Made by a program: the position numbers and the translations under genes. Below, one piece after another: positions 3,626-40,834 of a stretch of 64,000 nucleotides of DNA. Where the stretch lies: positions 18,279-82,278 of the IMG/VR virus record IMGVR_UViG_3300045988_051379, one strand, 5' to 3'. This DNA is from a virus. The notes under the pieces were generated by a model, which was not told where the DNA came from, did no database searches, and saw only the letters and a list, made by a program, of their open reading frames with translations. Position 1 is the stretch's first letter, and every line of letters begins with the position of its first letter.

Positions 3626-4452
3626 GAATCTCAACTAAAGGAAGAGGGATTATTAGGGCACAACAGGGAGCTGTAGCAAGACCTAATCCTAAAGAGAATT
3701 ATAAATTGCCAGAGGACCAGAGATATCAAGCCCAAACTAGAGGGATGAAAGACTTTGCTATAGAATGGTATAAAGAACGTGCTAAACAGCCTAAGTATCA
3801 ATCTCAAGTTAATGAATCTAACCTTGCTAACATTACTGACCAAATTAACAGGGCAGAATATGTAGAACCTTCTAAGTTCTATTCTAATCCAAATGTATAT
3901 AAAGGGAAGGTTGGTAATGTGACTCAAGCTGCCCAAGTAGCTATGAGACAAAATAAGGGAGCAGCATATCCAGCAGGATTGCAATACACATACAATGCTC
4001 CTTCATTCCCATTCTCTGGAAGATTTAGCCATGTGTCTTGGCATGAAGGTATTGGACACATGGTTGGAGATAATAATCCGCAGATATTAAAGGCCAATCC
4101 TGGTATTAATAACAGAGTGGATTATGAATCCTCTACACCATTAGAGTCTCAAGTGTACAGCTCCCAACCTAATGAAAGACATGCGGACACGTGGGGATTT
4201 AGAGGAGCCAATGTAAATATGAAAGATGCGAATGGTAATTATTATATTGACCCTAATAGGCAATTAAAAGGTACAGATATTCAGGAGATGAGAACTAAGG
4301 GAGCTAAAATACCTTCAGGGTTTAATACCCTTAGTGATGACGAGATAGCTAAACTGCATAATACCTTCGCTAGTAATGCTAACAACAAAAGAAGTAATAC
4401 TATGCTAATAGCTAAGAGAGGTGTGCAAATTAAACGTAGAATTATTAAATAA
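3613..4452 (+). CDS. hypothetical protein (G/N/Q/Y-rich, possibly virion-associated)
   Basis: 279-aa ORF upstream of the large tail/virion protein; no motif. Confidence 0.35.
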   Translation: MDIMRISTKGRGIIRAQQGAVARPNPKENYKLPEDQRYQAQTRGMKDFAIEWYKERAKQPKYQSQVNESNLANITDQINRAEYVEPSKFYSNPNVYKGKVGNVTQAAQVAMRQNKGAAYPAGLQYTYNAPSFPFSGRFSHVSWHEGIGHMVGDNNPQILKANPGINNRVDYESSTPLESQVYSSQPNERHADTWGFRGANVNMKDANGNYYIDPNRQLKGTDIQEMRTKGAKIPSGFNTLSDDEIAKLHNTFASNANNKRSNTMLIAKRGVQIKRRIIK

Positions 4453-4460
4453 TAACAATC

Positions 4461-5216: not shown

Positions 5217-8059
5217 TGAAAGTAATACCTAAACTACAACAAGGAAACACCATAGAGTCCGATAATACTAAAGTAGTTAGGCCAGAAATTCATGAACCTA
5301 TTAAAGCTAAACCTAGACAGTATTCCATTGTAGATTTAGGTGGAGAACCTTCTAATGATACCAGGTCAGCTGCTGAAAGAAATAGAGACTATTGGCATCC
5401 TATTAAAGGAGCTAAAGCCAGATTCAGGGCTTCTATGTCCAATGAGACTAATCTTTTAGTTGGAATAGAAAGAACTATACTTCCTTCAGCAGCTGGTGCT
5501 GCATTAGTAACAACTCCAGCCGCTGTTGTAGTAGGAGCTTTAGGTAATATGACTGTGGATAAGCTTACCGGGGGCTGGGGTAACTGGTTGGAAGATAAAA
5601 CTGGCATTCCGTCCGAAATTGGAGTTTATACTAATCCAGGAGCTTGGTATGGTGGTGCTAAAGGATATAAGATTGGAAAGGACAAGTTAATAACTAAATC
5701 AATTAAAGGTGACGCTGACTTAGCTTGGAATCCTATTAACAAGAACCATTGGATATTTAATAAGGAAGCAAGGACTCCTTCTAATATAGCAATGGCAACA
5801 GCTAACAGAATTACTCCATTTCTATCTAAGGTAGAGAAATTACCATTAAAAGTGGCTGCTTATAAAGCTGCCAAGAGAACTAACGGTAATGCATCAGTAA
5901 GTTTGCAAGATATAAAAACAATGCCAGCCGACTACACAGGTTCTTCAATACTAGGTGGAGGAAATTTAGAAGGTAGGAATCTATTAGCTAAATATATATT
6001 TGATGAGAATCCAGTAGTTAAAAGAATGTTCTTTAATAAAGCTACTAGTAATATCAAACCTATTAGCCGTAATGAAGCAAGGAGAGGATTTAGTCATGGC
6101 GATAGATATGAGCAGCTTTATCCTGGGGTTCATAACAGAAGATACGAAATGAGTGCAGTAGTACCCTCTGGTAGGCCATTGAAATTTCAAGAAGCTTCTG
6201 AATTTACAGAATACGCAGGAAAGAATCCGATTGGTAAAATTATTGGTAAGGAAGCTGAACCAGTAATGCGTATGGGAGATAAAGAGTTCATGACCTTTAG
6301 GCAGCCAGGAACCGATTATATAGGTCCTATTGATGACGTTGCTGGACACTTGGTTAAGTTTCAAATGAATAAGGGTAAGCTTAGACAGACTTCTCAAGAT
6401 ATGTGGAAATTTAATCCTGCTGACTATGCTAAGAGGTGGAATGATTCTCCTAACCAAGTTAGGCTTACTAAACAAGCTGCATTAATGGATAAAGTAGGTC
6501 GTCCGTTTATACTACAGCAATCTAATCCTATATGGATTGAAGGTAAGTCTGTTAGAAATCCAGAATTAGTAACTATGGCACATGGTGGAAGATTTGATTT
6601 TAAGAAGTCCCCTCTGTTAAAGAAACAAGAAGAGATTAACGGTAAACGAGACATGCGCAAGAAGTTCATCAAATCAAGTCGCCCAACCTATAAGAAGCGA
6701 ATCAAGAAAGCTCAACAAGGAATGAAGTTCGTAAGTTATAATCCAGTAAGTAATCCTACAATAGATTACACTGATATTACTAATCCTATTAATCCATTTA
6801 GTGAGTATAATTATAATACAACTTACGATAAACCAGAGGCTTTAGTAGTACCAGTAAGAGATACTGATGAAACTGATGTAGTAGCTAATAATCCTACAGT
6901 AGAGCCAGTAATTAATAAGCCAGTAGCTAGTAAATCTGTTACTGATAAACCTGTTACTAAAACTGCCAACTCAACTTGGAAGAGTCCATATACTAACAGA
7001 AAGCAATGGTCTACAGAACTTATTAATGCCTATAAGAAGGCAGGTATTACTAATGATAATGCAATTAGAATGTTATTAGCACAAGACGCATTAGAATCTA
7101 GTTGGGGTAAGTCTGCACAAGGTAAGTACAACTTTGGCAATTTAACTACTGGTAGTTCATGGAAAGGTAATTATGTAACTGGTAATGATAAAAATGCTAA
7201 AGGTGAAGCTATTAAGCAGAAGTTTAGGTCTTATAATTCTATGGATGAGTATGCAGCAGATAAGATACAATTCTTAAAGAGACTATATGACTTTGATGAG
7301 AATGATGATATTAATAAGTTTGTAGCTAAGCTTACTGGTTCTAATAAAGGTAAGAGAAGATATGCAGAAGCTACTAATTATGCTAAAGTACTTACTGGGG
7401 TATATAATGGTATTCCTAAAGGTGAGAATGGTATGATTATTAAGTATCAAGAACCTGCACAACCTATTAAGTATATGGGAGGTTATGATAAGAGAGGTAA
7501 TATAGTATTGCCAGTTAATAATGAGAATGGTATGAATAATGTAACTTTACCAGAAGTAACAGTTACTCCTAGAAATATTAATCTGGCTGGTGCTGTAGAT
7601 AGAGGAAGGAGAGAAGCCGCACCTTATGTTAGTACATTATTAACAGGTGCAATATTTGGGCCATTATCAGTAGCAGGTGGATATGCAGGTAATGAAGCAG
7701 TTAATAAGATAACTAATGTAGCTAGTAATGACAAATATAAAGACTGGGCTGATATGCTTTCTAAGACTACAGGAATGAATCCGGTAGTTGCAGATTTCTT
7801 TAACATAGGTAATTTGGCAGGTGGATTTGGAATGCGTAACTTTGGACCTAAGTTAAAGCCAGTAAAAGATATGGCTGTTGGTGGTAATAAATGGGCTAGA
7901 GCTAGAGTAATTAGTAAGGCTATAGATAAAGGGACTCCTTCAGTTGAGCCATTGCCCAATAATGTAGGTTGGGGACCTAGACAATCCATACATGTAGTAC
8001 ATGATAAGAATAGTGCTAGACTCCCGAAATTATACTTTCCAGAAAGGTGGGACTATTAA
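5216..8059 (+). CDS. large virion/tail protein with internal glucosaminidase (FlgJ-like, GH73) peptidoglycan-hydrolase domain; possible tape-measure or tail lysin
   Basis: 947 aa; AQDALESSWGKS...NFGNL...FRSYNSMDEY matches the AQAALESGWG / NNLFGIK / FRAY glucosaminidase motifs; hydrophobic Gly-rich segments near both ends. Confidence 0.55.
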   Translation: MKVIPKLQQGNTIESDNTKVVRPEIHEPIKAKPRQYSIVDLGGEPSNDTRSAAERNRDYWHPIKGAKARFRASMSNETNLLVGIERTILPSAAGAALVTTPAAVVVGALGNMTVDKLTGGWGNWLEDKTGIPSEIGVYTNPGAWYGGAKGYKIGKDKLITKSIKGDADLAWNPINKNHWIFNKEARTPSNIAMATANRITPFLSKVEKLPLKVAAYKAAKRTNGNASVSLQDIKTMPADYTGSSILGGGNLEGRNLLAKYIFDENPVVKRMFFNKATSNIKPISRNEARRGFSHGDRYEQLYPGVHNRRYEMSAVVPSGRPLKFQEASEFTEYAGKNPIGKIIGKEAEPVMRMGDKEFMTFRQPGTDYIGPIDDVAGHLVKFQMNKGKLRQTSQDMWKFNPADYAKRWNDSPNQVRLTKQAALMDKVGRPFILQQSNPIWIEGKSVRNPELVTMAHGGRFDFKKSPLLKKQEEINGKRDMRKKFIKSSRPTYKKRIKKAQQGMKFVSYNPVSNPTIDYTDITNPINPFSEYNYNTTYDKPEALVVPVRDTDETDVVANNPTVEPVINKPVASKSVTDKPVTKTANSTWKSPYTNRKQWSTELINAYKKAGITNDNAIRMLLAQDALESSWGKSAQGKYNFGNLTTGSSWKGNYVTGNDKNAKGEAIKQKFRSYNSMDEYAADKIQFLKRLYDFDENDDINKFVAKLTGSNKGKRRYAEATNYAKVLTGVYNGIPKGENGMIIKYQEPAQPIKYMGGYDKRGNIVLPVNNENGMNNVTLPEVTVTPRNINLAGAVDRGRREAAPYVSTLLTGAIFGPLSVAGGYAGNEAVNKITNVASNDKYKDWADMLSKTTGMNPVVADFFNIGNLAGGFGMRNFGPKLKPVKDMAVGGNKWARARVISKAIDKGTPSVEPLPNNVGWGPRQSIHVVHDKNSARLPKLYFPERWDY

Positions 8060-12167: not shown

Positions 12168-12542
12168 TCATTGAAGTTTCTCTAAGTTCTTTACTATTGT
12201 GAATAGCTCATCTGGTTCGAATGATGTGATATCATTAATAACATCAACCATATACTCTTTAACTTCATCTAGAGTCATTATTTTAAATTCGTCCTTAGAT
12301 AGGCCTTTAGTTTTAATGAATTTACTAAATATGTCTACAATCTGGGCTAAGTTGTGCTTATCTTGTAAATAGAACTCACCCCTCTCGGGATGAGATGCTA
12401 ATTTAAATATATCTGCATTATCTGTAATTACTTGTTCATATTCCTCATCACTAAGAAGATTCATTAACGCTACAGCTTTATCATATAGCAATTTAACTTC
12501 CTTCTCTTCATACTGCTTATTAATTCTATTAATATGTCTCAT
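12168..12542 (-). CDS. hypothetical acidic protein
   Basis: ORF in track. Confidence 0.35.
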   Translation of the reverse strand: MRHINRINKQYEEKEVKLLYDKAVALMNLLSDEEYEQVITDNADIFKLASHPERGEFYLQDKHNLAQIVDIFSKFIKTKGLSKDEFKIMTLDEVKEYMVDVINDITSFEPDELFTIVKNLEKLQ

Positions 12543-12544
12543 TA

Positions 12545-12799
12545 TTAGCGAATGTTATTATAAATGCAAGATAGTTGCATTAAATATTCAATACCAGCTC
12601 CATTAGCTAGTCCGTCTTGCAATTTATTTAATAATTCTAATTTTACATCTGTTGTTTTATTGTCTAACTTCACCCAGTTAGTTGCCTTTGATTCATTACA
12701 TCCTAAATCAGTATTTACTGGACATTCTGACAAACTAGTCTTTAATATTTTTACTTCATCTACTTCTTTACTTGTTAAGTCTTTAACTTCTTTAGCCAT
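12545..12799 (-). CDS. hypothetical protein
   Basis: ORF in track; last leftward gene before the divergent control region. Confidence 0.35.
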   Translation of the reverse strand: MAKEVKDLTSKEVDEVKILKTSLSECPVNTDLGCNESKATNWVKLDNKTTDVKLELLNKLQDGLANGAGIEYLMQLSCIYNNIR

Positions 12800-13938: not shown

Positions 13939-14723
13939 CAAAGTACTTCTTATTGAAAGGCACATTTAGAAAGTCTATTTGTGTCTTTCTTTTTATCATG
14001 CTTATTCAGATATATTTGTTAGTATGTAGTTAGCCGAATAGTGAAATGAAAGCGAAGAAATCAAAATTAAGAACTGTATTTGGACGTAATCGGAACGATG
14101 CAATTCATGCAAATAATGGTATAATGTATAAACTGACAAATCCCCTGTTTGAGGAAGCAGTAGGCTATTATTTGCTTGAACAAATCTCCACTTGGAGTGG
14201 GACGAGATATAAAGTACTAAAGTACGTAGTTCAGACCGTTTGAATGTGTAAAATGAATATTATTAAGAGTATGTAGGTCTGTGATAGATATGCATACTCA
14301 CCTTTTGTTTGAGTTGACAATAATACTATATATTTATGGACTACATCGAAGACGATTTCACAGATGCTCTGATTGACGCAATTTGTGGAGAAGATTCAAG
14401 TAATAACGATTAAAAACTTTACAACAATGGCAGTAACAAAATACGTTATAACTAACAATCTTTCTGTATTATACAATACTAGAGAAGTAGCAAAGTTGGA
14501 AACAGCATTTGCAAGAGGTGCTTTTAAGCGTCTGTACACAGTAGCACCTTTCATAGTAAAATAACCATTAAAACCTCGCAATGCAGGTCAATTGCATAAT
14601 ACTATGGTAACAGTAGCAATAGCAAAGACCAACATAATAGCCATTAAAGAGTATAAGTAACTACACAGAAAGCCAGCGCTGTAAAGACTGGCACAAAGTC
14701 TAATCATCAAAACATACGTACTT

Positions 14724-19692: not shown

Positions 19693-20248
19693 GGGCCTAG
19701 ATTTGGTTTTGACAGGCGATTACAAGTTAGTAAGACGTGTAGAGTTCGTACCAACTCTTTAATAATGATACAGCAATTTAAGTGGAAACACTGAAGTAAG
19801 AATGGCAGCCTAAGCTGCTGGCTTATCTATTAATTTAGCTCTAAGTCGGGTTAATTGGAGAGACCTAGAAACAGAAGAGGTGTGGGAAGAAGCGTATAGA
19901 GCAGCCCACTTAACTTGAAAGCCAAAGGTTAGTAAAGCTGAAATCTCCACTACCTATCTATGGGTTACAAATAGAAACGTTCTCCAACGTAAATGGAGTG
20001 GTGGAGGAGCGACTTCGGTCAGCCCAGGTTTGGAAGCGTCAGCTTCTGAACCTTTAAGTTTGGTAGTTTGTAAATTAGCTTTTGGTGTACTGGTTTGGCT
20101 ATTGCAGCCTAATTACCTGGTTCCAAGATAAGACTAGTAAAACTACCTACATGCTGAACTCAACAGCTGATGTAATAAAATAGAGACACACGTAATCTTA
20201 TTAATGAGGGTTGTTTGGACGGCGGTTCGACTCCGCCTAGGTCCACTA
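19693..20248 (+). ncRNA. ssrA: tmRNA (ssrA-like), about 550 nt
   Basis: 5' end GGGCCTAGATTTGGTTTTGACAGGCG matches the tmRNA 5' consensus GGGGcuGAUUcuGGaUUCGACgGG. 3' end GGACGGCGGTTCGACTCCGCC-TAGGTCC-A matches the E. coli ssrA 3' tRNA-like half. The acceptor pairs GGGCCTA/TAGGTCC. The region has no ORF of 60 aa or more with a Met start. A candidate tag ORF ends ...EVRMAA-stop at 19811..19813. Confidence 0.6.
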
Positions 20249-21749: not shown

Positions 21750-22129
21750 ATCCACTATTGACGAATGGTGGTAGCAAAACTTGGTCTGAAGAACCAATAG
21801 ACATATTCCGGAGTATGTCTATGACTTAAAGGCTATATCAAAGAGTTGAAACCTGTATCTATTCGAACAGTAGGAGTTCACCTGATTAAGCATCAGGAAA
21901 CAGTAGTGCAAATCTACTATAGATATTGTGTATAAGAGAGAATCTACACGGTCTGTATTATATAATCAGCATACAGATAGGTCACCAAGCAAACCTCTTT
22001 CCTGCCTGGTCAAGTGTGCATTACGGTCTGTAAGTGGCGAGCGGGTTAACGTATGTCCGATTGCCGTAATGCCGCTTGTTTATTGTTTAGAATAAAGAAA
22101 GACTCTCATAACAATAAATTTAACAAGAG

Positions 22130-23824: not shown

Positions 23825-23987
23825 GTATTTCGCGCACCGTTTATTTAATAGTTGAATTAATGTTCTGATTGGATAGAAGATAGATTTCATTATGCATGGA
23901 GAAGAGCGCATATTTGGTATAGTAATCTTTGTGCATATCTAGTGATACTAGGTGGGAATTTATTGGATGATTCCATAGGGACTGGAT

Positions 23988-24061
23988 AGAGATATAGTTC
24001 AGTGGTAGAACAGCTAAAGTCAATCTTTAGAAGAACATCAGTTCGAATCTGGTTATCTCTA
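23988..24061 (+). tRNA. tRNA-like (anticodon CAA as read; non-canonical junction)
   Basis: Acceptor AGAGATA/TATCTCT, D-arm GTTC-AGTGGTA-GAAC, anticodon stem CTAAA/TTTAG with loop GTCAATC, T-arm ATCAG-TTCGAAT-CTGGT. Two nt lie between the D and anticodon stems, and the variable loop is short for Leu. Confidence 0.45.
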
Positions 24062-24163
24062 CACCATTTTATTAATATGATTCTTTCAACATATGCAGTG
24101 TCATTTCTATCTCGACTCATAGTCATTATTACGAGTTAAAGTATCTGCAATTGTTGAATAACT

Positions 24164-24201
24164 ACTAAGCTCATCGGTTCGAGAGAATATGTGAGCTTAG
24201 T
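24164..24201 (+). repeat. hairpin with conserved loop GGTTCGAGAGAATA (copy A)
   Basis: 10-bp stem ACTAAGCTCA/TGAGCTTAGT around an 18-nt loop; followed by a T-rich stretch. Confidence 0.5.
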
Positions 24202-24311
24202 TTAATACCGAGCAAACTTCTATCGTATTTAATACATATTAACTTTTATATGTGAGAAAGATTCATTACCTTTGCACTCACAATTCACAGTTAATATGGA
24301 TTGTGTGATTC

Positions 24312-24395
24312 GGGCACGTAACCGGTAATTGGTAGCCGCGTAGACTGTAAATCTACTCCTTAATTGGACTGGAGGTTCGAATCCTCCCGGGCCCA
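24312..24395 (+). tRNA. tRNA-Tyr (GTA), long variable arm
   Basis: Anticodon stem GTAGA/TCTAC with loop CTGTAAA, T-arm GGAGG-TTCGAAT-CCTCC, acceptor GGGCACG/CGGGCCC (one A-G mismatch). A TACCTTTG (TAnnTTTG-like) element lies ~35 nt upstream. Confidence 0.65.
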
Positions 24396-24448
24396 CTCAC
24401 ACTGCGATAATTAAATACAATATCTGTTGAGGTCAAACTCGACAAACC

Positions 24449-24476
24449 CTTCTATGGTTCGAGAGAATAGTAGAAG
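24449..24476 (+). repeat. hairpin with conserved loop GGTTCGAGAGAATA (copy B)
   Basis: 6-bp stem CTTCTA/TAGAAG around a 16-nt loop carrying the same 14-nt motif as copy A; the stem sequence differs. Confidence 0.5.
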
Positions 24477-24496
24477 TAAACTGCGGGATTCGTATA

Positions 24497-24826
24497 ATGG
24501 TTATTATAACAGCCTTCCAAGCTGAAGATGACAGTTCAATTCTGTTATCCCGCTCATTATTAATAATAGATGAGATTATGAAAGAGACATCATTTAAGGC
24601 AGGTGTTATTGGTGGAGTATTTACCTTCTTGGCATTATTTGCAACCACAAGTAAAGCATCAATTAATGAGTCTGCTGCTACTAATGGAGATTATAAAATC
24701 AACAGAGTGCAGTATGAATTTATTAACGAACTAACCATTTATAAGGTATCAGGTCCTGGTATTCCAGGTATTAAGTATGTGCTTAGAGATTCCGAGAAAG
24801 GTGGTTTATGTGTATTAAATCCATGA
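24497..24826 (+). CDS. hypothetical membrane protein
   Basis: ORF in track with one hydrophobic helix. Confidence 0.3.
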   Translation: MVIITAFQAEDDSSILLSRSLLIIDEIMKETSFKAGVIGGVFTFLALFATTSKASINESAATNGDYKINRVQYEFINELTIYKVSGPGIPGIKYVLRDSEKGGLCVLNP

Positions 24827-25104
24827 GTGAACACTGTCTTATTAAGAAGAATACTCCAGAACTTCGTAAGAAACTAGAGGATGCTGGGTTAAGTGTGTGT
24901 ATATGTACTACATTTGAGGATGCTGATTGGCTTAGTTGCTGGAGTTCTCATATGTCATATGATGTACATGGTGTGTATCCGGATGACGTGGACGATTTGT
25001 CTAAAGAAGCCTATCTGGAGATGTATCTCAAGGAAACGAATCCGATTATATGTGAATCGGATGATGAGTTTATTAACATGTGTAAACAAATTAAAGGGAA
25101 ATGA
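24808..25104 (+). CDS. hypothetical protein
   Basis: ORF in track. Confidence 0.3.
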   Translation: MCIKSMSEHCLIKKNTPELRKKLEDAGLSVCICTTFEDADWLSCWSSHMSYDVHGVYPDDVDDLSKEAYLEMYLKETNPIICESDDEFINMCKQIKGK

Positions 25105-25471
25105 TTATGCGGTAGATTACTTACAAGCCACCATAAGATAGTTGATTATTAATTAAGGCAATTTATTTATTAACTTATTAACAATTAACTATCATGGCAA
25201 CAATTTAAACAAGAAATCGCGAATTTAGTAAAAGCACAGAAAGCAGCTAAGAATATTAATGACTGCTCATCAGTTTATTACAACAGAGGAAGATTACATG
25301 CAATGTATGTAGCTTATTACATATTAAAGCATAAACTAATCGGAGAAGCTATGAATGAGTATCTAGCTAAAGTTATCAAAGAATGGAAATCACTTGAAAC
25401 TCAAGGTTGGTGTGGTTATTCTAAGATGTATAGTGGAGAGAAGTATTTCCGAGAAAGAGTTGATTCACTGA

Positions 25472-25774
25472 TTGATACATATTCTGATGAAGAGATTGTA
25501 TGTGCTAATAGACCAGAAGCTTGATGCAGTTTATGGTTGTGTACAAGGAGGTCATGCAGTAGCACAGTGGTTATTAGAACATCCTAATCAAGAGTGGAAT
25601 AATAGCTATTTAATCTACTTATATGCAGACTTAGACAAATGGAAAGTAAGATTAGACTTAGTAAATAAGGACTATTCTTCATTCTATGAACCAGACCTTG
25701 GTAATCAATTAACAGCAATCGCATTACAAGATGACGGTCGCATGTTCAAGAAACTTAAATTAGTAAGAGAATGA
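25472..25774 (+). CDS. hypothetical protein, weak PTH2-like (peptidyl-tRNA hydrolase 2) motif
   Basis: LYVLIDQKLDAVYGCVQGGHAVA loosely resembles the Pth2 vvRtDLkMgkGKiaAQcsHA segment; low confidence. Confidence 0.25.
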   Translation: MIHILMKRLYVLIDQKLDAVYGCVQGGHAVAQWLLEHPNQEWNNSYLIYLYADLDKWKVRLDLVNKDYSSFYEPDLGNQLTAIALQDDGRMFKKLKLVRE

Positions 25775-26088
25775 TATACAAACGAGATTATTATGTTAGT
25801 GTAGGAGATGACCATGTAGTTATCACTAAGAACCCTAATCCTCATTTAACTACATTAGAGGACTTAAATGACCTCAACAAGAGGTATCTTTACAGAGAAG
25901 GGCAGAAGATTCTAACTCCTTTTGGCATTGAAACCATTAAGGAGATTATTAGAACTCATAGCAAACAACGTGGCTACGAATGGTTAATCCTTGTAGAAGA
26001 GAATGGAAACCAATATACTCCATTTGAACTAAATGGCATAGTAGTCAAGGAACTTACACTTGAACAGTGGAATCAAATTATCGAATAG
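25771..26088 (+). CDS. hypothetical protein
   Basis: ORF in track. Confidence 0.3.
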   Translation: MIYKRDYYVSVGDDHVVITKNPNPHLTTLEDLNDLNKRYLYREGQKILTPFGIETIKEIIRTHSKQRGYEWLILVEENGNQYTPFELNGIVVKELTLEQWNQIIE

Positions 26089-26125
26089 TTGATGAGTTGT
26101 GGGTAATCTCGTAAAACCCTCTGTC

Positions 26126-26197
26126 GCCCCATTACTTCAGTGGTAGAAGAGCAAATTCTAAACTTGTATGGCGTTGGTTCGAGTCCAACATGGGGCA
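26126..26197 (+). tRNA. suppressor tRNA-Sup (CTA, amber)
   Basis: Canonical 72-nt cloverleaf: acceptor GCCCCAT/ATGGGGC, D-arm CTTC-AGTGGTA-GAAG, anticodon loop TTCTAAA (anticodon CTA at 26158..26160), T-arm GTTGG-TTCGAGT-CCAAC. Confidence 0.6.
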
Positions 26198-26200
26198 CTT

Positions 26201-26289
26201 GCGGGCGAGTGGAACGGATATACAAACCATCCTGGTCTCATAAGCCACGGGATAGCGGGTTCGACTCCCGCGCTCCGCAACTACAATCA
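26201..26289 (+). tRNA. tRNA-like element (possible CAT anticodon), non-canonical, maybe pseudogene
   Basis: Good T-arm GCGGG-TTCGACT-CCCGC; acceptor only 5/7 paired; candidate anticodon arm TGGT-CTCATAA-GCCA; D region too long. Confidence 0.3.
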
Positions 26290-26381
26290 TTGTACATACT
26301 ACATTTTCAGAATGTTAAGAAGACAAACAGCAATTTCCTGTATGTTGGCATAAGTAAATGAATCTATTGTCTTCTGATGAT

Positions 26382-26455
26382 GGGTGTATAACTCAGGTGG
26401 TAGAGTAACACGCTGATAACGTGTAAGTCCTTGGTTCACCCACAATACAACAATT
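26382..26455 (+). tRNA. tRNA-Ile (GAT), aberrant T-arm
   Basis: D-arm ACTC-AGGTGGTA-GAGT and anticodon arm ACACG-CTGATAA-CGTGT are canonical; T-stem and acceptor 3' strand pair poorly. Confidence 0.45.
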
Positions 26456-26543
26456 TTCAATAGCTTTGAATAAGAAGTCTTACGGCACGAAAGAAAGTGT
26501 TTCATATTTTATGATTTTAATTAAACTAAGAGACTTCTGTAGT

Positions 26544-26615
26544 CCGGGATGTAGTTCAGTAGATAGAATGCGTGGTTTGGGACCACGAGGTCGCTGGTTT
26601 GAATCCAGTCATCCC
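26544..26615 (+). tRNA. tRNA-Pro (TGG)
   Basis: Acceptor CGGGATG/CATCCCG, anticodon arm CGTGG-TTTGGGA-CCACG, T-arm GCTGG-TTTGAAT-CCAGT. Confidence 0.7.
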
Positions 26616-26673
26616 GACCCCCTGTAGCATCCAAGAGAGGATGCTGATAATCCCATAATAATAAATGTGGACA

Positions 26674-26706
26674 ACTACTCCGTTCGTGAGAATAGAGTAG
26701 TTTTAA
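26674..26706 (+). terminator. hairpin terminator after tRNA-Pro (loop CGTTCGTGAGAATA)
   Basis: Stem ACTACTC/GAGTAGT followed by TTTTAAT. Confidence 0.5.
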
Positions 26707-26842
26707 TAAGAACCATAATTAACACAATAATGTATAGTTTCACTAAACAATTATCAAATCAACTCAACAACCAACTCAACAACTTTTAATTTATGATTTG
26801 ATTAACCTGTTTCATAGTTAAGCCCATAAGTCGTATTGATAC

Positions 26843-26914
26843 GTGGGCTTGCCCGAGAGGTTTAGGGGCTGGTCCGCAAAACCAGTTAGGACGGTTCGAT
26901 TCCGTCAGCCCACT
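26843..26914 (+). tRNA. tRNA-Cys (GCA)
   Basis: Acceptor GTGGGCT/AGCCCAC, anticodon arm CTGGT-CCGCAAA-ACCAG, T-arm GACGG-TTCGATT-CCGTC; position 33 is C, which is unusual. Confidence 0.55.
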
Positions 26915-26997
26915 CTCGATTTAGTGAAACATAAGAAGGCGTACAGCACTAATCATTGTACAGTTTACATGTTTTTGATAACGCGCCTTCTGCGGAT

Positions 26998-27071
26998 GAT
27001 TCCGTAGCTCAGCTGGTTAGAGCACGATACTTTTAATATCGGGGTCCTGCGTTCGAATCGCAGCGGAGTCA
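26998..27071 (+). tRNA. tRNA-Lys (TTT)
   Basis: D-arm GCTC-AGCTGGTTA-GAGC, anticodon arm CGATA-CTTTTAA-TATCG, T-arm CTGCG-TTCGAAT-CGCAG, acceptor GATTCCG/CGGAGTC. Confidence 0.8.
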
Positions 27072-27113
27072 CATATGTACTAAGATTGTACATGATGTCA
27101 AAGAACGAGTTTG

Positions 27114-27148
27114 ACCACTCAGTCTGTGAAGATAGAGTGGTTTATTTA
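27114..27148 (+). terminator. hairpin terminator after tRNA-Lys
   Basis: Stem ACCACTC/GAGTGGT with loop AGTCTGTGAAGATA, then TTATTTAG. Confidence 0.5.
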
Positions 27149-27324
27149 GATTACTTATTTATTGACTAAAACTGATGTATTATGAGACTATTTAAGTTAA
27201 TTAAGAAAGCAGTTCGTTGGTATTTCAAAGTGTCAGCTGATAGCTACACGTGGTATCCAACAGGAGTAGTTCCTTACCATAGGGATTAACTCCGATGCAA
27301 TCGGGATAGGTCAATTAAACATTT

Positions 27325-27399
27325 GGGAAGGAAGCTTAAGTGGTATACAGCTGCGGCCTGTTAAGCCGAAGATAGCGAGTTCGAGTCTCGCCCTTCCCG
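27325..27399 (+). tRNA. tRNA-Asn (GTT)
   Basis: Acceptor GGGAAGG/CCTTCCC, anticodon loop CTGTTAA on a GCGGC/GCCGA stem, T-arm GCGAG-TTCGAGT-CTCGC. Confidence 0.6.
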
Positions 27400-27513
27400 C
27401 ATTATTAACATTAAATTATAAGATTATGCATAGTTTTGGTGCTTACATTGTGGGAGCTATAGTGCTAGTAGTACTGTATTATATCTTTAAAGATTCCACA
27501 ATCTAGAATTGAT

Positions 27514-33079: not shown

Positions 33080-33167
33080 GGAGAGTTGGGTGAGTGGCTT
33101 AAACCAGTCCCCTGCTAAGGGACCGAACCTCAAAAGGGTTCCGCTGGTTCGAATCCAGCACTCTCCG
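33080..33167 (+). tRNA. tRNA-Ser (GCT), type II
   Basis: Anticodon arm GTCCC-CTGCTAA-GGGAC, long variable arm with GAACC/GGTTC stem, T-arm GCTGG-TTCGAAT-CCAGC. Confidence 0.8.
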
Positions 33168-33219
33168 CGCTGGCTAATAAGAGTTTGCGAAAATCATTAA
33201 TAACCTAATTATTAGAATT

Positions 33220-40375: not shown

Positions 40376-40834
40376 ATGCCAACAATTGTTGATATGAGAC
40401 CGTCAACTAACACTTTCAGACATGCAACTTTGATAGTAATATGGCTGGTGGTGTGCTTAGTAGGACTAGGAGGATGTAAATCTAACTTAGTTAAAGAAAC
40501 CTGTACTGATAGACCCGTGTGGACTACAGTAGTTGCTAAGGACTGTTATACAGAAACAATTAATCAGCAGACGCATACTGTATATAAGCTTACACTAATA
40601 GCCGACGGTAGGGACAATCAGTTCAAACTACGTGTAGACAAACCAACCTATGATAGAGCTTTTATTAATAACAAGCCTAATAGGCTTAGCTTTAATCTTA
40701 ATAGAAGTGATTATGGGACTGGTTGGGAGCCATTAATTGTTGCATTGTATTTCCTTATGCTTGTTGGTGGGCTAGCATGTGTGATAATTGAAGGTATAAA
40801 ATACATGATTGATATTAAAGAACATTTATCATAG
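40376..40834 (+). CDS. membrane protein (N- and C-terminal TM helices)
   Basis: ORF in track. Confidence 0.35.
   Translation: MPTIVDMRPSTNTFRHATLIVIWLVVCLVGLGGCKSNLVKETCTDRPVWTTVVAKDCYTETINQQTHTVYKLTLIADGRDNQFKLRVDKPTYDRAFINNKPNRLSFNLNRSDYGTGWEPLIVALYFLMLVGGLACVIIEGIKYMIDIKEHLS

Follow-up and report, generated by a model that had tools for sequence, protein, structure and literature searches.

Phages and prophages of the Bacteroidales, crAss-like phages among them, carry a large family of hairpins that fold on the sense strand, most simply as RNA, and that join stems of unrelated sequence to a single conserved cap. At least 218 distinct members were found (360 public viral loci listed). Each resembles an intergenic terminator hairpin to which a dedicated, conserved cap has been fitted, and the family is apparently undescribed. 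Its structure, size, strand, restriction to Bacteroidales phages and place just before the next functional RNA are solid. Its role is probably that of marking transcript ends or processing points.

Four strong copies and one weak one, all on the coding (+) strand, occur in the window, the 64,000-nucleotide stretch of viral DNA analyzed here. With a G+C content of 37% and long ORFs exclusively on the + strand, the window looks like part of a very large phage. Its tRNA calls number 27, one of them a suppressor with anticodon CUA, and a tmRNA and a RAGATH-34 RNA are also present. No close relative of the window was found among GenBank phages. Sixteen IMG/VR contigs (≤270 kb) are 99% identical to it over a neighboring 564-aa protein and are thus too close for covariation analysis. 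The tRNA regions of close relatives are mosaic, as in L001, which has a 415-bp insertion between the first hairpin and tRNA-Tyr.

The first-pass annotation of the window had placed two hairpins with an identical core at 24164..24201 and 24449..24476, and both are found there; the common sequence, GGTTCGAGAGAATA, is exact in each and has only these two exact matches in the 64 kb. In copy 1 (24164..24201, + strand), an outer stem of 11 pairs leads through a 2x2 internal loop (C/U and G/A) to a G.U pair, a UUC/GAA helix and a GAGA tetraloop (37.1 bits with a covariance model of the family; minimum free energy (MFE) -17.7 kcal/mol, z -4.3). Copy 2 (24449..24476, + strand) has a 7-pair stem closed by U.G, a G.A mismatch, the same G.U plus UUC/GAA helix and a GAGA tetraloop (39.0 bits; MFE -10.7 kcal/mol, z -3.4). 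At 11 and 7 pairs, each including a U.G, the stems are longer than the 10 and 6 bp first counted. Nor is the apical segment the open 14-nt loop that it had been taken for, since the MFE folds structure it into a mismatch, the G.U and 3 bp, and a tetraloop.

Two hairpins that had been credited only with related loops, at 26674 and 27114, are in fact full members of the family. Copy 3 (26673..26702, + strand; CGTTCGTGAGAATA) combines an 8-pair stem, a C.A mismatch, G.U plus UUC/GAA and a GUGA tetraloop (40.9 bits; MFE -13.5 kcal/mol, z -3.8). Copy 4 (27113..27142, + strand; AGTCTGTGAAGATA) also has an 8-pair stem, with an A.A mismatch, G.U plus UCU/AGA and a GUGA tetraloop (39.3 bits; MFE -15.2 kcal/mol, z -4.2); where copies 1-3 have TTC/GAA, its inner helix has TCT/AGA, a compensatory substitution. 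All four strong copies thus share one predicted architecture of outer stem, mismatch (1x1, or 2x2 in copy 1), G.U plus 3 bp and tetraloop, and form stable, G+C-containing stem-loops on the transcribed strand (MFE -10.7 to -17.7 kcal/mol, z -3.4 to -4.3). The covariance model, which was built from unrelated copies, scores them at 37-41 bits (E ~1e-9). A possible fifth, divergent member occupies an intergenic position at 14267..14299 (+ strand; 16.3 bits, E 0.04; MFE -15.3 kcal/mol, z -3.4), where a 9-pair stem carries a GG-UCU...AGA-UA cap with a GUGAU pentaloop. A look-alike near 40471 was dropped; it lies within an ORF and is treated as chance, since it receives no model score and folds no better than shuffled sequences (z -1.7).

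The strong copies are set among tRNA genes in two ways. Copies 1, 3 and 4 lie 101 nt 3′ of tRNA-Leu(CAA), 53 nt 3′ of tRNA-Pro and 40 nt 3′ of tRNA-Lys, respectively, and their U-rich tails (TTTAATA after copy 1, a U-rich stretch after copy 3 and TATTT after copy 4) are followed by 110-190 nt before the next tRNA. The T run proper is present at copies 3 and 4, weak at copy 1 and absent at copy 2. Copy 2 instead ends 6 nt 5′ of tRNA-Gly(UCC) (24483..24555, + strand; called by ARAGORN, Rfam tRNA score 58 bits), whose 5′ end it adjoins, and this order of hairpin followed by tRNA matches that in the cultured Bacteroides phage crAss001 and in dozens of other phages. The position of the first two hairpins on either side of tRNA-Tyr, emphasized in the first-pass annotation, is incidental, the recurrent association being that of a hairpin with the tRNA a few nucleotides downstream, here tRNA-Gly.

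Matches to the Bacteroides-type -7 promoter box, TAnnTTTG, are found between copy 1 and tRNA-Tyr (TACCTTTG, 24267..24274, + strand) and at 26461, 5′ of tRNA-Pro. Judged from sequence, copies 1, 3 and 4 would have the layout of promoter, tRNA and terminator, and the box at 24267 would be expected if copy 1 closes one transcription unit and a new one begins there; because TAnnTTTG occurs at chance frequency across the window, this box is weak evidence. A further element flagged at the outset, CAAAC(C)CTTCTAT beside both of the first two copies, is real: CAAAC..TTCTAT matches the window three times where 0.25 matches would be expected, and two of the three adjoin hairpins, at 24213 and 24443. The first of these (CAAACTTCTAT, 24213..24223, + strand) begins 11 nt 3′ of copy 1 and repeats the left flank and 5′ arm of copy 2 (CAAACCCTTCTAT, 24443-24455). 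This repeat is probably the scar of a duplication or recombination event.

Comparison across the family resolves the cap into a fixed series of elements. A Y-G pair closes the stem; next toward the tip comes an N.A mismatch, in most cases G.A, then a G.U that never varies, three covarying base pairs and, at the end, a GNGA tetraloop. Together these elements give the 16-nt consensus YGG-yyy-GNGA-rrr-UAG on a basal stem of 6-11 pairs and arbitrary sequence. Among the 218 distinct hairpins listed, outer stems are mostly of 7-9 pairs, closed by C-G in 53% and by U.G in 44%. GUGA is the most frequent loop, followed by GAGA, GCGA and GGGA, the third loop position being G in nearly all, and the commonest cores among the matches listed are GGTTCGTGAGAATA (71 of 218 distinct hairpins) and GGTCTGTGAAGATA (59 of 218).

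The proposal of selection on an element whose apical part is conserved while its stems covary formerly rested on four copies and is now borne out by hundreds of independent ones. In an alignment of 32 sequences, picked for having stems, 98% of cells are paired and 10 of the 11 pairs vary on both sides, values that none of 500 shuffles reached. Tests free of that choice point the same way. Outside the seed, the three inner pairs all form in 65 of 72 cores, as opposed to 74 of 1083 controls (7%), and the inner helices of these cores are of at least 12 kinds, the 5′ strand being made up of pyrimidines; TTC/GAA alternates with TCT/AGA, CTT/AAG, TCC/GGA, CCC/GGG and others. Non-Watson-Crick pairs in the outer stems are G.U in 181 cases and A.C in 12, which indicates that the sense strand is the one that folds, most simply as RNA.

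Searches beyond the window dispose of the concern that the motif occurs only here, with at least 218 distinct stem-bearing hairpins found in viral contigs. The exact 14-mer GGTTCGAGAGAATA has 84 distinct viral-contig occurrences among the matches listed, 32% of them with a flanking stem of at least 5 pairs; random positions are flanked by stems in 2.7% of cases. Neighboring hairpins in these 14-mer loci revealed GUGA loops and the TCT/AGA helix as common. The 15-mers GGTTCGTGAGAATAG and GGTCTGTGAAGATAG are each present at 120 or more IMG/VR loci, as against 53 for a reversed control 15-mer in the whole collection, and stems of at least 5 perfect pairs flank 85% and 76%, respectively, of their distinct occurrences among the matches listed.

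In bacterial genomes, which contribute at least 120 loci, 33 of the matches listed have stems, and nearly all of these are from Bacteroidales where a record title is shown. The stem-bearing genera and groups among the matches listed are Prevotella, Bacteroides, Parabacteroides, Alistipes, Leyella and Muribaculaceae, while the stemless matches listed, as expected of chance, are scattered over all phyla. Copies in bacterial genomes adjoin phage genes (NinG, RusA, integrase, an O-like replication initiator, DNA polymerase and helicase), and prophage copies sit where NinG/RusA and replication genes are found. The crAss-like Bohxovirus shares 82% identity with one viral locus, and crAss001 has exactly one strong copy, at 1879-1908, located 5-6 nt 5′ of tRNA-Glu. 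Genomes carry only 1-6 copies, far below their number of transcription units.

No Rfam 15 family reached its gathering score at the hairpins in a scan of the whole window, nor did any in six related loci, and a scan of 23900-27500 at E values up to 10 returned nothing but BTnc201. A full-text literature search by exact sequence and by topic retrieved no description; subscription journals lie outside its coverage, and a prior description there is possible. Keyword searches of papers on theta ribozymes, structured RNAs of the human microbiome, Bacteroides transcriptomes and metagenomic terminators likewise gave none. BTnc201 is MasB (Rfam RF04177), an sRNA of Bacteroides thetaiotaomicron that, according to two reports (PMC7366714, PMC10994844), has a hairpin at its mapped 5′ end. 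This hairpin shares with the phage family its tip (G-UCU-GUGA-AGA-U), C-G...A-G flanks, a variable stem and the host order, but in place of the 1x1 mismatch it has a 4x4 internal loop (GUAA/GAUA). Against copy 4, RF04177 scores 22 bits, with a gathering threshold of 105 over a 99-nt model of which only the 5′ hairpin aligns, and the similarity is therefore one of resemblance rather than membership.

Members of the family are intergenic and oriented like the neighboring genes (131 co-directional, 5 antisense), and their downstream spacing is tight. A tRNA-like gene begins within 16 nt downstream of 70 of 214 hairpins but of only 13 of 642 controls (2%), as scored by a permissive detector that looks for an acceptor stem and T-arm and includes ~20 unusually long tRNA-like genes. 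Where a same-strand tRNA follows, 41 of 70 hairpins end 2-13 nt 5′ of it, and a preceding tRNA, where present, ends 24-80 nt upstream of the hairpin. No fixed ruler distance separates the tetraloop from the tRNA 5′ end, which are ~9-20 nt apart. In ~80% of the hairpin-tRNA gaps, the base at -1 of the tRNA is T, and the gap is often AAAT, features that make a good RNase P leader. The tRNAs preceded in this way are mostly Glu(UUC), Gln(UUG), Arg(CCU, UCU), Gly(UCC) and Leu(UAA), and never Met (0 of 34), Phe (0 of 18), Ala or Pro, a bias that may partly reflect common descent, as related phages share tRNA arrays. Many copies are far from any tRNA. Among the hairpins outside the tRNA class, 50 of 136 have an ORF start 15-45 nt downstream, compared with 23 of 136 random positions, and about a quarter of the whole family lies at this distance from a start codon. 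Between two ORFs, 35 of 59 end 18-38 nt before the next start codon, and the distance to the upstream ORF varies from 13 to 261 nt.

Factor-dependent terminators and RNase processing sites, both suggested in the first-pass annotation, are plausible functions for such an element. The explanation that we tentatively favor, while rating it at somewhat below an even chance, combines the two: the hairpin would mark the boundary between RNA units, either as an intrinsic terminator or as an end-protecting hairpin left after RNase P cleavage, and a conserved host factor would read its cap. At copies 1, 3 and 4 and in about half of the family, a short U run follows the hairpin, which could there be an intrinsic terminator or attenuator, probably a leaky one. 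Where the hairpin adjoins a tRNA, as at copy 2 and in about a third of the family, RNase P would cut at the tRNA 5′ end and leave an upstream RNA ending in the hairpin plus a tail of 2-13 nt, the same product as termination would give. By both routes, the hairpin would set and protect a 3′ end immediately ahead of the next functional RNA. The cap, which is more strongly conserved than the stems, far beyond what folding needs, and is common to unrelated phages of one host order, is a putative site at which a conserved part of the host machinery, for example a ribonuclease or RNA polymerase with NusA, would dock; were it read in this way, the event would be factor-dependent.

Comparison with ordinary intrinsic terminators supports part of this scheme. 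Like them, the phage hairpins are stable, intergenic and on the sense strand, about half have a T run, and copies 1, 3 and 4 come after tRNA genes. At positions +1 to +5 past the stem, 55-70% of bases are T, and a run of at least 4 T follows 53% of copies, versus 9% of controls (31% in the tRNA class, 51% elsewhere); runs of at least 3 T follow 74%. The differences are that the apical 16 nt are conserved over hundreds of unrelated stems, about a quarter of the family (26%) lacks even the shorter T run, a third ends a few nucleotides before a tRNA, and there are only 1-6 copies per genome. A simple terminator scan called none of the four window copies, because they do not satisfy its loop-size rule. 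At copies a few nucleotides from a tRNA, termination would silence that tRNA, and the conserved cap, which is unnecessary for intrinsic termination, counts against the terminator part of the favored explanation. It appears that a boundary hairpin accounts for most copies, and that neither a terminator nor a 5′ leader would by itself explain them all.

The main rival, which we consider fairly unlikely but a serious contender, is that the hairpin forms the 5′-terminal structure of the primary transcript of the downstream tRNA or gene. Transcription would begin a few nucleotides upstream of the hairpin, which might protect the RNA from 5′-end-dependent decay or insulate its folding, and RNase P would remove it from tRNAs. 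The tight downstream spacing, 2-13 nt to tRNAs and 15-45 nt to start codons, is as this leader model would have it. Upstream sequences are T/G-rich, and TTTG and TAnnTTT are enriched on the sense strand within ~25 nt of the hairpin. This enrichment is diffuse, no sharp canonical Bacteroides promoter was found at a fixed distance, and TAnnTTTG stands at chance level in the window; the canonical box occurs within 80 nt upstream of only 17% of copies, and directly upstream of none of the four in the window (0/4). Bacteroides-promoter-like flanks are nonetheless seen in some loci (L078, L177 and L425). L177 contains three repeated units, each with a T/G-rich box, a hairpin and a tRNA, and in the L425 prophage TTTG-N17-TATGTTTA lies 14 nt 5′ of a hairpin that precedes a tRNA-like gene.

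Other observations bear on the leader model from both sides. Within the intergenic class, 24 copies are in apparently divergent and 9 in convergent contexts by crude gene calls, the bias toward Glu, Gln, Arg, Gly and Leu tRNAs and never Met or Phe would suit separately driven, high-demand tRNAs, and MasB/BTnc201 begins, at its mapped transcription start, with a hairpin that has a GUCU-GUGA-AGAU tip. Set against this, ~20 hairpins between ORFs lie only 13-35 nt from the upstream stop codon, which leaves no room for a promoter, several tRNA-to-hairpin spacers are merely 24-33 nt, and a T run right after the stem is a terminator signature that would abort transcripts just started. Overall, start-codon spacing, the divergent excess and promoter-like upstream sequence fit a 5′ leader at least as well as they fit a terminator.

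A different possibility, which we regard as improbable, is a control RNA similar to nut or put, whose cap would bind a phage antiterminator or the host RNA polymerase and render downstream transcription resistant to termination. The nut boxB of lambda and the put RNA of HK022 are small phage hairpins that act in cis on elongation near the start of a transcription unit, boxB as a small structured site recognized by arginine-rich antiterminators and put RNA through direct recognition by host polymerase. The phage family resembles them in its GNRA-type loop fold, and a cap with such a loop and purine mismatches is reminiscent of boxB-type recognition sites. The element is specific to phages and is found in early and nin-like prophage regions, and its conservation across unrelated phages of one host order would suit direct recognition by the host polymerase. 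The differences are considerable, as the phage cap is a true tetraloop with G.U and N.A, many copies adjoin tRNAs, and the search 3′ of the hairpin found no boxA-like partner motif, the downstream consensus being only T(3-6) followed by A. An association with one specific neighboring gene was also rejected: the genes beside the hairpins are mostly small and of many kinds, 58 downstream ORFs falling into 48 clusters and 55 upstream ORFs into 44, and no shared neighboring protein was found. Finally, one copy for each of several tRNAs exceeds what processive antitermination needs.

Two further proposals appear very improbable. The hairpins could be tiny decoy RNAs, mini-genes of promoter, hairpin and terminator whose abundant products of 40-50 nt would titrate a host RNA-binding or defense protein. 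L078, which packs six copies into ~620 nt, is suggestive of such an arrangement, since each copy has an AT-rich promoter-like stretch before it, including one perfect TAAATTTG box and one TATAAT, and a T run after it; most genomes, however, carry isolated copies between genes or adjoining tRNAs. Slightly harder still to credit is a DNA-level element, in which a cruciform or single-stranded DNA hairpin would direct recombination, signal replication or serve as a promoter of the type that the phage N4 virion polymerase uses. Inverted repeats that are conserved at their center could in principle act in DNA, and the tRNA regions of relatives are mosaic, as noted for L001. Yet, with G.U exceeding A.C by 181 to 12 and a cap G.U that is invariant, good folding is confined to the sense strand, which rules out a cruciform or a template-strand hairpin; orientation tracks transcription, and a GNGA loop with a covarying closing helix is typical of RNA. 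The earlier idea of tRNA T-arm remnants, prompted by the GGTTCGA shared by the GAGA/TTC variant and the T-loop consensus and by the presence of copies in a tRNA array, is refuted. A T-arm has a 5-bp stem closed by G53-C61 and a 7-nt loop, T54-Psi55-C56-R57-A58, whereas TTCGA is missing from GGTCTGTGAAGATA, which is among the two commonest cores, the inner helix covaries as no T-loop does, positions 53 and 61 would be G and G and so could not form the G53-C61 pair, no tRNA-model match overlaps the hairpins, and many copies are far from tRNAs.

Returning to the boundary hairpin, the closest precedents come from other phages. Phage T4 reportedly has intercistronic C(UUCG)G hairpins, said to have been described by Tuerk et al. 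in 1988, in which one tetraloop and closing pair recur on differing stems. Such hairpins are linked to mRNA stability and termination. Both cases involve one tetraloop module re-used on different intergenic stems, but the Bacteroidales motif has GNGA together with a fixed G.U, an N.A mismatch and a Y-G closing pair, and it spans many unrelated phage lineages, whereas that of T4 belongs to one phage. The RNase III sites of T7 are several similar intergenic hairpins that the host enzyme cuts, leaving the upstream RNA with a protective 3′ hairpin. These sites are longer, at about two helical turns (≥20 bp) with an internal loop, and the phage-family helices, at 11-16 pairs including the cap, are short for RNase III.

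A small structured RNA that recurs beside gut-phage tRNAs also has a counterpart in theta (minimal HDV-like) ribozymes, which are located directly 3′ of gut-phage tRNAs, including those of Bacteroidota phages, form a nested double pseudoknot and are thought to define the tRNA end (PMC10879173). The present element differs in being a simple hairpin 5′ of tRNAs, and a keyword search of that paper found no mention of tRNA-5′ hairpins. A part of a theta or HDV-like ribozyme, whose nested double pseudoknot (P1, P1.1, P2, P3, P4) begins at the cleavage site directly 3′ of a tRNA, was rejected as an identity, since the hairpin is on the wrong side of the tRNA, has AT-rich, unconserved flanks and gives no Rfam HDV-type match. 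Several other structural look-alikes were set aside by comparison of geometries. A mimic of the sarcin-ricin loop, with its bulged-G motif AGUA/GAA, or of SRP domain IV, with its symmetric and asymmetric loops, is contradicted by symmetric strands (5 nt on each side), a loop that is mostly GUGA rather than GAGA and the lack of an rRNA or SRP match, and group II intron domain 5, K-turns and T-loops were rejected on the symmetric strands, the GUGA loop and the covarying inner helix.

Conceivably, the cap is a dedicated recognition module for a conserved Bacteroidales component, be it RNA polymerase with NusA, RNase P or another ribonuclease, which phages of every lifestyle (crAss-like, jumbo and temperate) have kept or acquired as a means of governing how their own tRNAs and early genes are expressed or matured. 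We hold this broader proposal to be doubtful but possible; if true, it would represent a host-order-specific, phage-only RNA signal of an undescribed kind. Bacteroidales phages, crAss-like phages above all, are among the most abundant viruses of the human gut, and almost nothing is known of how they punctuate their transcripts and express their large tRNA sets. The motif described here is short and easily searched, flags the boundaries of tRNAs and genes in phage lineages that are unrelated but infect one host order, and could be used both as a landmark in annotation and to mark host range computationally. The single copy 5′ of tRNA-Glu in crAss001 offers a concrete experimental handle in a cultured system. 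If a host factor does read the cap, the hairpin would be a new control point in phage tRNA supply, and such control would bear on codon-usage adaptation and stop-codon recoding in Bacteroidales phages.

The tRNA array of the window phage lies in a region that also carries other structured RNAs on the plus strand. A phage-encoded tmRNA is recognized by its Rfam model at window positions 19693-20248 (84 bits) and receives no call from ARAGORN; tmRNA genes are also present on three other viral contigs that bear the conserved-cap hairpin (L024, L086 and L124). A full-length RAGATH-34 RNA, a motif of unknown function, resides within this tRNA/tmRNA region at 21752-21859, and its score of 118 bits exceeds the gathering threshold of 61.

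Within the array, an amber-suppressor tRNA whose anticodon is CUA (plus strand, labelled "Pyl" by ARAGORN) occupies positions 26126-26198. Its presence suggests that TAG is recoded in part of the phage genome, and ORF calls that terminate at TAG may therefore be truncated. Immediately 3′ to this gene, on the same strand, is a tRNA-like stretch with an acceptor stem and a T-arm (26199-26271), which weakly matches the 3′ end of tmRNA, and further downstream is a partial tRNA of 61 nt (plus strand, 26382-26442; Rfam, 40 bits). ARAGORN makes no call at either position. Because close relatives (L003) carry tRNA-Met and tRNA-Ile in the roughly corresponding region of the array, these two stretches may be decayed or unusual tRNAs. 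Elsewhere in the window (33080-33183), ARAGORN reports a plus-strand tRNA-Ser(GCU) overlapping a minus-strand tRNA-Arg(UCG), the latter call being probably an artefact.

In several Bacteroidales phage contigs, the hairpins precede tRNA genes of 90-175 nt, in which long internal insertions accompany a normal acceptor stem and T-arm. Such genes, found at 2036-2162 and 2253-2350 of contig L177 and also among 22 cases from the permissive tRNA detector, score approximately 39-40 bits with the Rfam tRNA model and are negative with ARAGORN. The insertions may represent introns or extended arms of tRNAs.

Smaller elements also lie near the window tRNAs. The sequence ATTGTACA occurs on the plus strand at 26289, 26955 and 27085, three copies within 800 bp, each following a tRNA or a tRNA-like stretch at a distance of 13-40 nt from the 3′ end; only this clustering is notable, as across the whole window the sequence is no more frequent than chance predicts (4 versus 4.0 expected). 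A small separate hairpin, AGCATCC-AAGAGA-GGATGCT (plus strand, 26625-26646), sits directly 3′ of tRNA-Pro and upstream of the third family copy, and a similar small palindrome, ATGTAC..GTACAT, lies 3′ of tRNA-Lys and upstream of the fourth.

In three loci unrelated to one another (L049, ~6297-6310; L120, ~531-544; L427, ~4442-4455), the hairpin is directly preceded by a different palindrome of 14 nt, GCTACAAA(G/T)GTAGC. In L049, a 72-aa helix-turn-helix gene and then an ORF of 740 aa lie downstream of the palindrome; their sizes and order lead us to suspect that they belong to a Mu-like phage and encode a Ner/Cro-like regulator and a transposase, respectively. If so, the palindrome would be a putative operator.

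Relatives of the window phage vary in tRNA content. The 99%-identical L001 carries a 415-bp insertion (12190-12595, corresponding to window position ~24300) between the first hairpin copy and tRNA-Tyr, which encodes an ORF of roughly 130 aa, and alongside it tRNA-Tyr has diverged. The tRNA array of these phages is a mosaic, possibly one shaped by mobile genes.
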